From the sequence record EF204939.1: a stretch of 3,569 bases of DNA. One strand, given 5' to 3'. Within the stretch, counting starts at the first letter, position 1. Every line of letters starts with the position of its first letter. A program made the translations under genes and the position numbers. The notes below the pieces were generated by a model that made no database searches, had not been told where the DNA came from, and saw only the letters and a list, made by a program, of their open reading frames with translations. Positions 130 through 3,398 of this stretch are shown piece after piece. This DNA comes from Escherichia phage MS2.

Positions 130-1311
130 ATGCGAGCTTTTAGTGTCCTTGATAGGGAATCCGAGACCTTCGTCCCCTCCGTTCGCGTTTATGCTGACGG
201 GGAGGTCGAGGATAACTCATTTTCCTTAAAATACCGTTCGAACTGGACTCCTGGCCGATTTAACTCGACTGGGACCAGAACGAATCAGTGGCACTATCCG
301 TCCCCTTACTCTAGGGGAGCGCTTAGTGTCACTTCGGTCGATCAAGGTTCCTACAAGCGCTCTGGGTCATCGTGGGGTCGTCCGTACGAGGAGAAAGCTG
401 GTTTTGGCTTCTCGCTCGACGCACGTTCCTGCTACAGCCTCTTCCCTGTCAGTCAAAATATGACTTACATCGAAGTGCCGCAGAACGTTGCGAATCGGGC
501 GTCGACCGAAGTCCTGCAGAAGGTTACCCAGGGTAATTTTAACCTTGGCGTAGCTTTAGCAGAGGCCAGGTCGACAGCCTCACAACTCGCGACGCAAACC
601 ATTGCGCTCGTGAAGGCGTACACTGCCGCTCGTCGCGGTAATTGGCGCCAGGCGCTCCGCTATCTTGCCCTAAACGAAGATCGGAAATTCCGGTCAAAAC
701 ACGTGGCAGGTAGATGGTTGGAGTTGCAGTTCGGTTGGCTACCGCTTATGAGCGATATCCAAGGTGCATATGAGATGCTTACGAAGGTTCATCTTCAAGA
801 GTTTCTTCCTATGAGAGCCGTACGACAGGTGGGTACTAACGTTAAGTTAGATGGCCGCTTGTCGTATCCAGCTGCAAACTACCAGACTACGTGCAACATA
901 TCGCGACGAATCGTGATATGGTTTTACATAAACGATGCACGTTTGGCCTGGTTGTCGTCTCTAGGTATCTTGAACCCACTAGGTATAGTGTGGGAAAAGG
1001 TGCCTTTCTCATTCGTTGTCGACTGGCTCCTTCCTGTAGGAAACATGCTCGAGGGCCTTACAGCCCCCGTAGGATGCTCCTACATGTCTGGAACAGTTAC
1101 TGACGTAATAACGGGTGAGTCCATCATAAGCGTTGACGCTCCCTATGGGTGGACTGTGGAGAGACAGGGCACTGCTAAGGCCCAGATCTCGGCCATGCAT
1201 CGAGGGGTGCAATCCGTATGGCCAACAACTGGCGTATACGTGAAATCACCTTTCTCGATTGTCCATACCTTAGATGCGTTAGCATTAATCAGGCAACGGC
1301 TCTCAAGATAG
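130..1311 (+). CDS. mat: Maturation protein (A protein; pilus attachment/assembly protein), 393 aa
   Basis: ORF track 130..1311 (393 aa). The translation is near-identical to the MS2 A protein as I recall it (MRAFS...IRQRLSR). First gene of the levivirus layout, preceded by a strong SD. Starts with ATG here. Confidence 0.95.
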   Translation: MRAFSVLDRESETFVPSVRVYADGEVEDNSFSLKYRSNWTPGRFNSTGTRTNQWHYPSPYSRGALSVTSVDQGSYKRSGSSWGRPYEEKAGFGFSLDARSCYSLFPVSQNMTYIEVPQNVANRASTEVLQKVTQGNFNLGVALAEARSTASQLATQTIALVKAYTAARRGNWRQALRYLALNEDRKFRSKHVAGRWLELQFGWLPLMSDIQGAYEMLTKVHLQEFLPMRAVRQVGTNVKLDGRLSYPAANYQTTCNISRRIVIWFYINDARLAWLSSLGILNPLGIVWEKVPFSFVVDWLLPVGNMLEGLTAPVGCSYMSGTVTDVITGESIISVDAPYGWTVERQGTAKAQISAMHRGVQSVWPTTGVYVKSPFSIVHTLDALALIRQRLSR

Positions 1312-1334: not shown

Positions 1335-1727
1335 ATGGCTTCTAACTTTACTCAGTTTGTTCTCGTCGACAATGGCGGAACCGGCGACGTGACTGTCGCT
1401 CCAAGCAACTTCGCTAACGGGGTCGCTGAATGGATCAGCTCTAACTCACGCTCTCAGGCTTACAAAGTAACCTGTAGTGTTCGTCAGAGCTCTGCGCAGA
1501 ACCGCAAGTACACCATCAAAGTCGAAGTGCCAAAAGTGGCTACTCAGACCGTCGGTGGCGTACAGCTTCCTGTAGCCGCATGGCGTTCGTACTTAAATAT
1601 GGAATTAACTATTCCAATTTTCGCGACGAACGACGATTGCGCGCTTATTGTTAAGGCGATGCAAGGTCTCCTAAAAGATGGAAACCCAATCCCCTCAGCA
1701 ATCGCAGCCAACTCCGGAATCTATTAA
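1335..1727 (+). CDS. cp: Major coat (capsid) protein, 130 codons including initiator Met (129-aa mature protein)
   Basis: ORF track 1335..1727. Translation MASNFTQFVLVDNGGTGDV...ANSGIY is the MS2 coat protein sequence with a few substitutions. Operator-binding residues (T45, R49, K61, Y85, N87 in mature numbering) are present. Confidence 0.97.
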   Translation: MASNFTQFVLVDNGGTGDVTVAPSNFANGVAEWISSNSRSQAYKVTCSVRQSSAQNRKYTIKVEVPKVATQTVGGVQLPVAAWRSYLNMELTIPIFATNDDCALIVKAMQGLLKDGNPIPSAIAANSGIY

Positions 1728-1905
1728 TAGATTCCGGCCATTCCAACATGAGGATTACCCATGTCGAAGACAACAAAGAAGTTCAACTCTTTATGTATTG
1801 ATCTTCCTCGCGATCTTTCTCTCGAAATTTACCAATCAATTGCTTCTGTCGCTACTGGAAGCGGTGATCCGCACAGTAGAGACTTTACGGCAATTGCTTA
1901 CCTAA
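1678..1905 (+). CDS. L: Lysis protein L (75 aa), +1 frame, overlapping the coat 3' end and the replicase 5' end
   Basis: ORF track 1678..1905. Translation METQSPQQSQ...LLEAVIRTVETLRQLLT closely matches the MS2 L protein, including the hydrophobic C-terminal segment LYVLIFLAIFLSKFTNQLLLSLLEAV. Position matches the MS2 L gene. Confidence 0.9.
   Translation: METQSPQQSQPTPESINRFRPFQHEDYPCRRQQRSSTLYVLIFLAIFLSKFTNQLLLSLLEAVIRTVETLRQLLT
1725..1730 (+). terminator. Tandem in-frame translational stop codons UAA-UAG ending the coat gene
   Basis: Seen directly: taa 1725-1727 immediately followed in frame by tag 1728-1730. In MS2-like phages, ribosomes terminating here are thought to reinitiate at the upstream lysis start codon. 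Confidence 0.85.
1746..1764 (+). promoter_or_regulatory. Coat-protein-binding translational operator hairpin (TR) enclosing the replicase SD and start codon
   Basis: Seen directly: acatgaggattacccatgt. Stem acatg/catgt, bulged A, lower stem gg/cc, loop AUUA; contains SD gagga 1750-1754 and replicase ATG 1761-1763. Identical to the classic MS2 19-nt operator as I recall it. Confidence 0.93.
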
Positions 1906-3398
1906 GAGACGAGTTGCTCACAAAGCATCCGTCTTTAGGAAATGGTAATGACGAGGCGACCCGCCGGGCTTTAGCTATCGCTAAGCTCCGGGAGGCGAAT
2001 GAACGATGTGGCCAGATTAACAGAGAAGGTTTCTTACATGACAAATCCTTGTCGTGGGATCCGGATGTTTTACAAACCAGCATCCGTAGCCTTATTGGCA
2101 ACCTTCTCTCTGGCTATCGTTCGTCGTTGTTTGGGCAATGCACGTTTTCCAACGGTGCCTCTATGGGGCACAAGTTGCAGGATGCAGCGCCTTACAAGAA
2201 GTTCGCTGAACAAGCAACCGTTACCCCCCGCGCTCTGAGAGCGGCGTTACTGGTCAGAGACCAGTGTGCGCCGTGGATCAGACACGCGGTCCGCTATAAC
2301 GAATCATATAAATTTAGACTCGTTGTAGGGAACGGAGTGTTTACAGTTCCGAAGAATAATAAAATAGATCGGGCTGCCTGTAAGGAGCCCGATATGAATA
2401 TGTACCTTCAGAAAGGAGTTGGCGCTTTTATACGGCGTCGTCTCAGATCCGTTGGTATAGACCTGAATGATCAAACGATCAACCAGCGTCTGGCTCAACA
2501 AGGCAGCGTCGATGGCTCATTGGCGACGATAGACTTATCGTCGGCCTCTGACTCCATCTCTGACCGCCTGGTGTGGAGTTTCCTCCCACCTGAGCTATAT
2601 TCATATCTCGATCGTATCCGCTCCCACTATGGAATCATAGATGGAGAGACGATACGATGGGAACTATTTTCCACAATGGGAAATGGGTTCACTTTTGAAC
2701 TAGAGTCCATGATATTTTGGGCTATAGTAAAAGCAACCCAGATCCATTTTGGTAACGCCGGAACCATAGGCATCTACGGGGACGATATTATATGTCCCAG
2801 TGAGATTGCACCCCGTGTGCTAGAGGCGCTAGCCTACTACGGTTTCAAACCGAATCTTCGTAAAACGTTCGTGTCAGGGCTCTTTCGCGAGAGCTGTGGC
2901 GCGCACTTTTACCGTGGTGTCGATGTCAAACCGTTTTACATCAGGAAACCAGTCGACAATCTCTTCTCCCTTATGCTGATCATGAATCGGCTTAGGGGAT
3001 GGGGTGTTGTCGGAGGTATGTCAGATCCTCGCCTATATAAGGTTTGGGTACGACTGTCCTCCCTGGTTCCATCGATGTTCTTCGGTGGGACGGACCTTGC
3101 TGCTGACTACTACGTAGTCAGCCCCCCGACAGCGGTCTCAGTTTATACTAAGACCGCATATGGGAGGTTGCTCGCGGACGCCCGTACCTCGGGTTTCCGT
3201 CTTGCTCGTATCGCGAAAGAGCGTAAGCACTTTAGCGAGAAGCATGACAGTGGTCGCTACATAGCATGGTTCCATACTGGAGGTGAAATCACCGATAGTA
3301 TGAAGTCCGCCGGCGTGCGTGTTATGCGCACTTCGGAATGGCTAACGCCGGTTCCCACATTCCCGCAGGAGTGTGGGCCAGCGAGCTCTCCTCGGTAG
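1761..3398 (+). CDS. rep: RNA-directed RNA polymerase (replicase beta subunit), 545 aa
   Basis: ORF track 1761..3398. Translation begins MSKTTKKFNSLCIDLPRDLS as in MS2 replicase and contains the catalytic YGDD motif. Stop TAG at 3396-3398. Confidence 0.97.
   Translation: MSKTTKKFNSLCIDLPRDLSLEIYQSIASVATGSGDPHSRDFTAIAYLRDELLTKHPSLGNGNDEATRRALAIAKLREANERCGQINREGFLHDKSLSWDPDVLQTSIRSLIGNLLSGYRSSLFGQCTFSNGASMGHKLQDAAPYKKFAEQATVTPRALRAALLVRDQCAPWIRHAVRYNESYKFRLVVGNGVFTVPKNNKIDRAACKEPDMNMYLQKGVGAFIRRRLRSVGIDLNDQTINQRLAQQGSVDGSLATIDLSSASDSISDRLVWSFLPPELYSYLDRIRSHYGIIDGETIRWELFSTMGNGFTFELESMIFWAIVKATQIHFGNAGTIGIYGDDIICPSEIAPRVLEALAYYGFKPNLRKTFVSGLFRESCGAHFYRGVDVKPFYIRKPVDNLFSLMLIMNRLRGWGVVGGMSDPRLYKVWVRLSSLVPSMFFGGTDLAADYYVVSPPTAVSVYTKTAYGRLLADARTSGFRLARIAKERKHFSEKHDSGRYIAWFHTGGEITDSMKSAGVRVMRTSEWLTPVPTFPQECGPASSPR
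2778..2786 (+). other. RdRp catalytic GDD motif (motif C) within replicase
   Basis: Codons ggg gac gat at 2778-2786 encode G-D-D in the context FGNAGTIGIYGDDIICP; frame verified from ATG 1761. Confidence 0.9.

Follow-up and report, generated by a model that had tools for sequence, protein, structure and literature searches.

Three coat residues that set an MS2-like phage apart from laboratory MS2 are probably ordinary strain variation

Introduction

When the coat protein of an MS2-like phage departs from that of reference MS2 at three residues, is the capsid an unusual variant with altered properties, or is it the ordinary coat of the wild relatives of a laboratory strain? This question is raised by the coat gene of sequence record EF204939.1 (Escherichia phage MS2), whose whole stretch of 3,569 nt, hereafter called the window, was analysed. 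A first-pass annotation, made from the letters alone, had drawn attention to Gln76, Asp99 and Ala102 in the coat, and had proposed that surface charge, assembly or stability of the capsid could differ from those of MS2. The phage MS2 is the standard surrogate in (i) water treatment; (ii) disinfection; and (iii) the engineering of virus-like particles (VLPs).

Genome Organization and Strain Identity

The window comprises a complete levivirus genome, laid out as in MS2 (Table 1). The coat gene (cp) lies between the maturation (mat) and replicase (rep) genes and the lysis frame (lys) overlaps its 3' end, which is the gene order of leviviruses. The coordinates of the four genes are identical to those of reference MS2 (NC_001417.2), and all the open reading frames (ORFs) of the window are intact. 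The coat product matches the Pfam family PF01819 (Levi_coat) with 226.7 bits (cutoff 25; E 1e-67), from position 1 to position 132 of the 132 positions of the profile.

Table 1. Features of the window discussed in the text; positions are those of the window.
Feature	Position	Strand	Description	Source
Maturation gene (mat)	130-1311			ORF list
Coat gene (cp)	1335..1727	+	130 codons + stop	ORF list, Pfam, tblastn
FG-loop segment, residues 71-76	1548..1565	+	Faces the capsid pores	Coat ORF frame; loop definition from bioRxiv 10.1101/2020.06.23.168070
Predicted local RNA hairpin	1555..1579	+	Stems 1555-1559/1575-1579 and 1561-1565/1570-1574; loop CUUC	
Codon 76	1563..1565	+	CAG (Gln); GAG (Glu) in MS2, fr, T72, GER_L00928 and FrSaffron	
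Codon 99	1632..1634	+	GAC (Asp); TCC (Ser) in MS2, R17, ST4 and M12; GCC (Ala) in FrSaffron	
Codon 102	1641..1643	+	GCG (Ala); GAG (Glu) only in MS2, R17 and ST4	
Lysis frame (lys)	1678-1905		Overlaps the 3' end of cp	ORF list
Coat-protein operator hairpin	1729..1764	+	Translational repression, packaging; replicase start	Rfam RF02359
Replicase gene (rep)	1761-3398			ORF list
Window-private nucleotides, first half	255, 285, 349, 381, 399, 450, 711, 792, 825, 1260, 1382			
Window-private nucleotides, second half	1625, 2147, 2247, 2303, 2630, 2637, 2828, 2831, 2944, 3365, 3456			

Whole-genome matches in the annotated phage collection were best for MS2-like isolates (94-95% identity). Identity is 92.4% to reference MS2 (7.6% divergent, mostly at synonymous sites) and 78% to fr, while the nearest genome among those compared, deposited or metagenomic, is 95.1% identical. 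Judging by its sequence, the window is a new strain of the well-known species Emesvirus zinderi.

Some further observations can be made on this genome. The window has a nucleotide of its own at 22 positions (Table 1), shared with none of the other MS2-like genomes compared that extend over the position. The mat start codon (130-132) is ATG in the window, in R17, in M12 and in every environmental MS2-like genome compared that covers these positions, and GTG in reference MS2 and ST4. Since GTG was found only in these two, the GUG start of the MS2 A-protein gene appears to be a minority state in the species. Among the proteins, it is the lysis protein that has diverged most from MS2: 9 of its 75 residues are changed (MS2 residue, position, window residue: R4Q, F5S, Q11P, A14E, T16I, R19F, K23Q, T68E and Q71R), as against 3 of 130 in the coat and 21 of 545 in the replicase.

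Three Coat Differences and Their Charge

A comparison of the coat with that of NC_001417.2, by residue and by codon, yields exactly three differences, in mature numbering E76Q, S99D and E102A. The substitutions that had been pointed out are, hence, real, and the contexts in which they had been quoted (VGGV-Q-LPVAAW and ATN-D-DC-A-LIV) are correct in the coat translation. The codon positions given for them stand as well, but the feature drawn around them ended at 1641 and cut codon 102, which runs to 1643. Since the three differences are the only ones in the coat, the RNA-contact residues are unchanged, as had been stated. Ala102 is common to the window, fr, M12, JP501 and all the environmental isolates.

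With regard to charge, the earlier tally of two acidic residues lost and one gained is right: the acidic count goes from 9 to 8 per subunit. The formal net charge per subunit increases from +1 in MS2 to +2 in the window, and the computed pI of the monomer from 8.00 to 8.67. Because S99D and E102A cancel each other, this net charge of +1 can be attributed to E76Q alone. One negative charge fewer per subunit amounts to about +180 formal charges per particle with respect to MS2. In terms of computed formal charge, the proposal that the capsid differs from that of MS2 therefore holds.

The operator hairpin of the window was matched by Rfam RF02359 with 60.6 bits, against a gathering score of 40. 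Its 19-mer, ACATGAGGATTACCCATGT (1746-1764), is identical to that of MS2 in the alignment. Position 1744 is C in the window, in most environmental strains and in fr, and A in MS2, R17, ST4, M12 and DL1. We take positions 1738-1744 to be the 3' arm of the long-distance pairing of Min Jou, with 1427-1433 as its partner. On this pairing, the terminal U1427-A1744 pair of MS2 would become a U.C mismatch in the window, the six G/C-rich core pairs being unchanged.

Identical Coats in Other Phages

A tblastn search of annotated phage records gave six phages with 100% coat identity over 130 aa: DL1 (EF107159), DL16 (EF108464), DL52 (JQ966307), DL54 (JQ966308), FrHenna (PP430140) and FrBlood (PP430139). 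The first-pass annotation had equated an exact match to a named group I phage with ordinary strain variation; such a match was found in all six, and the reading of the coat as an unusual variant is not supported. The DL strains were isolated from nature, in river and bay water (PMC3499819). DL1, DL16, DL52 and DL54 were all detected in wastewater, DL52 being a predominant influent strain (PMC6963950), and FrHenna and FrBlood were plaque-purified on F+ E. coli (PMC12169576). Given that plaque-forming phages share this coat, the combination Gln76, Asp99 and Ala102 (Q/D/A) makes infectious particles.

The exact coat sequence is also a named NCBI/UniRef entry (J9QBW2_BPMS2), seen on 38 contigs, against at least 1000 for the reference MS2 coat. 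The coat of the window is encoded, too, by nine further metagenomic contigs of near-full length, a count which, coming from an exact-sequence look-up, cannot by itself measure selection. The codons CAG, GAC and GCG are fixed in all 16 identical-coat genomes, which come from different laboratories and samples. Furthermore, ABQ02456.1 is listed under the exact coat sequence and its accession directly precedes the protein accessions of ST4; from this listing and order, phage J20 probably carries the same coat. The variant coat is real but already known, as it has been public since the genomes of DL1 and DL16 were deposited. It has little weight as a discovery, being common in sewage and surface-water phages.

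Our preferred reading, to which we give a probability of roughly 0.85, is that the window carries the standard coat of an environmental MS2-like clade, i.e. ordinary strain variation and not an unusual mutant. At the other extreme, the three changes might be errors of sequencing, or mutations that an MS2 stock acquired on laboratory passage. Nothing specific speaks for such an artefact, apart from the fact that MS2 is a ubiquitous laboratory control whose reference coat turns up on so many contigs. It can be practically dismissed: the genome is 7.6% away from MS2, mostly at synonymous sites, its ORFs are intact, and the same three codons occur in 16 independent genomes.

Two other coats can be mentioned at this point. 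The coat variant M88L is present in 'MS2_ancestral' and presumably matches the coat of f2. The record MT830620.1 (L009; Hu-Sh-YMS-1704-01, from Chinese human stool) has the Q/D/A coat together with G16S (codon at locus 1383-1385). Residue 16 is G17 when the initiator Met is counted, and G17D at this residue lets MS2 escape the defence system bNACHT32.

Polarity of the Changes and Phylogeny

Neighbour-joining trees were built from mat+cp, with the three codons excluded, and also from the 5' part of rep. A laboratory-type clade of M12, R17, ST4 and MS2 was recovered (99% bootstrap), all of whose members have S99; within it, R17, ST4 and MS2 form a subclade (100% bootstrap) in which all have E102. 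The environmental sister clade (90% bootstrap for mat+cp, 85% for the 5' part of rep) comprises the window, every Q/D/A genome and the German isolate GER_L00928, and takes in DL1, DL16, the HuSh isolates and the Fr phages, FrSaffron among them. At the nucleotide level, the window is 94-95% identical to members of this clade, 92% to MS2 and 78% to fr.

At residues 76/99/102, the following states were found: (i) E/D/A in fr and the German isolate; (ii) E/A/A in FrSaffron; (iii) E/S/A in M12 and JP501; (iv) E/S/E in MS2, R17 and ST4; (v) Q/D/A in the group of the window; and (vi) E/D/T in the group II outgroup, Emesvirus japonicum T72. The outgroup states (fr and T72), read together with the clades of the tree, indicate that D99 and A102 are ancestral and that S99, and then E102, arose on the way to laboratory MS2. 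On this sequence evidence, S99 and E102 are the derived residues of the laboratory MS2/R17/ST4 lineage, and E76Q is the only one of the three changes derived in the lineage of the window. The direction of change implied by the first-pass annotation is thus reversed at two of the three sites. Between the codons GAC and TCC, each one step away from it, lies GCC (Ala), and FrSaffron shows that Ala99 is viable; as the historical intermediate at residue 99, nevertheless, FrSaffron is ruled out by its position in the environmental clade.

The history of codon 76 is less simple. The carriers of Q76 were recovered as one clade in 0/200, 16/200 and 0/200 bootstraps (0/200 for mat+cp). Poor resolution of a single origin, reversions or recombination could each account for this; the trees remain compatible with one origin, since support is lacking at most nodes within the environmental clade.

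As a separate matter, DL54 groups with DL16 and DL52 in the mat+cp tree (100% bootstrap), while in the 5' part of rep it groups with the metagenomic contigs mg24 and mg27, and DL52 and DL16 pair at 100% without it. This conflict points to environmental MS2-like genomes being mosaic to a greater extent than the published replicase recombination of DL52 and DL54. These two phages represent the GI-JS recombinant subgroup, whose traits are a divergent 3' replicase segment and a shortened 3' UTR (PMC3499819). Assignment of the window to GI-JS was rejected: its replicase is 81% identical to those of DL52 and DL54 and 94-95% to those of DL16 and FrHenna, and its length is 3569 nt, not 3525.

The substitutions might also be viewed as antigenic or defence-evasion divergence between environmental and laboratory lineages, residues 99 and 102 being exposed on the outside of the particle and residue 76 at the pores. 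Certainly, the coat protein triggers bNACHT defence, the escape mutation G17D lies in a surface loop, and residues 76 and 102 are strongly exposed. But each of the four bNACHT systems gave defence against the group formed by MS2 and the MS2-like phages (PMC12169576), which includes FrHenna and FrBlood (Q/D/A) as well as FrSaffron (E/A/A). Besides, no bNACHT escape mutations at coat residues 76, 99 or 102 were found in the supplementary files of PMC12169576 that were examined, and D99 and A102 are the ancestral states and not recent changes. Evasion of this kind is, then, a very unlikely explanation.

Selection and Tolerance of Mutation

Selection was measured on pairs of records found by nucleotide similarity, which were taken as valid for this purpose. 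Between the window and the six identical-coat phages, the coat gene shows 0 non-synonymous and 18-24 synonymous differences; against MS2, 4 of its nucleotide differences are non-synonymous and 26 synonymous (dN/dS 0.04). All 46 segregating sites among the identical-coat genomes are synonymous, although this figure is circular for the metagenomic contigs, which were retrieved by protein identity. Purifying selection on the coat is strong outside its variable sites. Among the MS2-like genomes compared, only residues 76, 99 and 102 of the coat differ in more than one isolate.

The effect of each substitution can be read from a mutational scan of MS2 VLPs (PMC5895741), which deals with single substitutions in the MS2 background and with RNA-nonspecific VLPs rather than virions. 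The scores (Suppl. Data 1) are 0.55 for E76Q, 1.10 for S99D (the top value in its row) and 0.74 for E102A, with a baseline of 0.63 +/- 0.3 (mean) for silent mutations and -2.66 for nonsense mutations. Position 76 tolerates even proline; positions 77, 78, 100 and 101 are intolerant (PMC5895741). By the mutability index of the same work, residues 76, 99 and 102 rank 14, 3-8 and 3-8 of 128, respectively. A random triple of sites would be equally tolerant with P about 0.001, so the placement of the three changes is not random.

Capsid Structure, Charge and Phenotype

The FG loop (residues 71-76) lines the fivefold and quasi-sixfold pores of the capsid, and the side chain of E76 hydrogen-bonds the backbone of T71 (bioRxiv 10.1101/2020.06.23.168070). 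According to the literature, this loop makes the quasi-equivalent conformational switch, with isomerisation of Pro78. In the MS2 dimer, the solvent-accessible surface areas of Glu76 (116 A^2) and Glu102 (76 A^2) place them among the most exposed acidic residues (PMC9685359).

The three substitutions could, on this basis, constitute a functionally significant capsid variant, altered in charge, FG-loop switching, assembly or thermal stability. The location of E76 in the FG loop and its bond to T71 fit such a reading, as do the additional formal charge per subunit and the shift in monomer pI. The E76D mutant is also said to be temperature-sensitive for assembly. It warranted a crystal structure (1MST; Stonehouse 1996 cited), and DL52, which has the same coat, was enriched after chlorination and relatively chlorine-resistant in one study (PMC6963950).

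Nevertheless, a functional variant is an unlikely reading. Each substitution is wild-type-like in VLP assembly, the sites are all in the top 14 of 128 for tolerance, and position 76 accepts even proline. The identical coat is found in many independent infectious isolates, and S99D and E102A, which offset each other in charge, bring back ancestral residues. As for chlorination, DL54 shares the coat of DL52 yet behaved differently from it through wastewater treatment and disinfection (PMC6963950), so the coat does not explain the treatment phenotype of DL52. The possibility of altered assembly, raised in the first-pass annotation, is at odds with the plaque purification of phages carrying this coat (PMC3499819; PMC12169576) and with the scores of the single substitutions. 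Neither direct thermostability data on E76Q nor a stability or charge measurement for the Q/D/A coat was found in the literature searched, and no capsid structure with Q76 was among the PDB sequences matched by the coat.

Under the preferred reading, that of a standard environmental coat, the protein would build the usual T=3 levivirus shell and bind the usual operator hairpin. Assembly of a T=3 shell with FG-loop conformational switching can be expected from a coat that is 100% identical to those of plaque-forming phages and 97.7% identical to the solved MS2 capsids. A single-sequence AlphaFold2 model of the coat had a mean pLDDT of 53.4, too poor for residue mapping.

Asp99 and Ala102, where helix A begins on the outside of the particle, are ancestral, and the laboratory lineage (M12, then R17, ST4 and MS2) moved from them to Ser99 and then to Glu102. 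Seen from MS2, their presence in the window amounts to a charge-neutral swap, in the first turn of an exterior helix, that brings the ancestral residues back. Gln76, in turn, would have arisen within the environmental clade by a single-nucleotide change (GAG to CAG) that keeps side-chain length, at the end of the pore-lining FG loop. Positions 76, 99 and 102 are solvent-exposed and highly tolerant of mutation and, in consequence, the changes are probably neutral or nearly neutral for assembly. The sole systematic physical effect would be one negative charge fewer per subunit near the pores. Gln76 presumably keeps the hydrogen bond to the backbone of Thr71 while removing that charge, and the phenotypic effect of the charge change is likely to be only modest.

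Codon 76 at the RNA Level

The change at codon 76 might have been selected in the RNA and not in the protein, through the predicted hairpin at 1555-1579 (its folding, packaging contacts or nuclease protection), Glu to Gln being a tolerated by-product. In this hairpin, G1563C (the nucleotide change behind E76Q) turns a G.G mismatch into a C-G pair. The predicted energy goes from -7.7 kcal/mol in MS2, GER and FrSaffron to -10.7 in DL16 and -13.1 in the window, whose hairpin has z = -2.87 (2 of 200 shuffles did as well). Three other stem positions, 1559, 1562 and 1574, vary among the 17 Q76 genomes compared, and they remain paired in every one. Moreover, the synonymous change U1559C, present in the window (U.G to C-G), occurs only on the C1563 background among the MS2-like genomes compared.

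Selection on this hairpin is, however, improbable. Every change that preserves a pair is a one-sided transition at a third position, opposite G or U, where pairing is kept automatically, and two-sided compensation is absent from the table of pairs per strain. The RNAalifold consensus across strains leaves 1563 unpaired, and strains with E76, including MS2, are fully fit with the mismatch. Over the coat region, RNAalifold gave no conserved pairing at 1563, 1632, 1633 or 1642, and the predicted lysis hairpin (around 1649-1700) excludes codon 102.

A combination of both levels can also be conceived, in which Gln76 would be non-neutral: by removing the ring of negative charge at the pores and closing the hairpin at 1555-1579, it would be a dual protein-and-RNA adaptation maintained in environmental phages. 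We consider this quite improbable. If it were true, G1563C/E76Q would affect particle stability, disinfectant resistance or packaging, and Q76 might have been gained or lost more than once within the clade.

Implications for the Use of MS2 as a Surrogate

Within its species, laboratory MS2 turns out to be the exception at residues 99 and 102 of the coat and, like ST4, in the GTG start of its maturation gene. Many wild relatives have one acidic residue fewer per subunit at the pores than MS2. In adsorption, aggregation and filtration, this calls for a caveat on charge when results are extrapolated from MS2 to natural F-specific RNA phages.

Comparison with Known Systems

The closest known systems are the phages with an identical coat. 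DL1, DL16, DL52, DL54, FrHenna and FrBlood share with the window the same 130 residues, the same three codons, the gene order and the coordinates; within the coat gene, they differ from it by synonymous changes only (18-24 nt). Their genomes are 5-6% divergent from the window, except for those of DL52 and DL54, whose recombinant replicase raises the figure to about 12-13% over aligned positions.

The coat of MS2, R17 and ST4 (NC_001417.2, EF108465 and EF204940; PDB 2MS2) matches that of the window at 127 of 130 residues. The RNA-contact residues, operator hairpin, length and fold family are the same, but the laboratory coat has E76, S99 and E102, that is, one acidic residue more. The phage fr (X15031; PDB 1FRS) has D99 and A102, in the context ATNDDCALIV, together with the coat length and gene position of the window. 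By contrast, its coat has E76 and 15 further substitutions, and its genome is 78% identical.

Finally, several MS2 mutants have been changed at the same residue or in the same loop: E76D (PDB 1MST), P78N (PDB 1BMS) and the SyMAPS variants E76C and E76P. They show that a change at residue 76 is still compatible with the formation of T=3 particles. But while these mutants are laboratory constructs on the MS2 background, the Q76 of the window is a naturally fixed allele.
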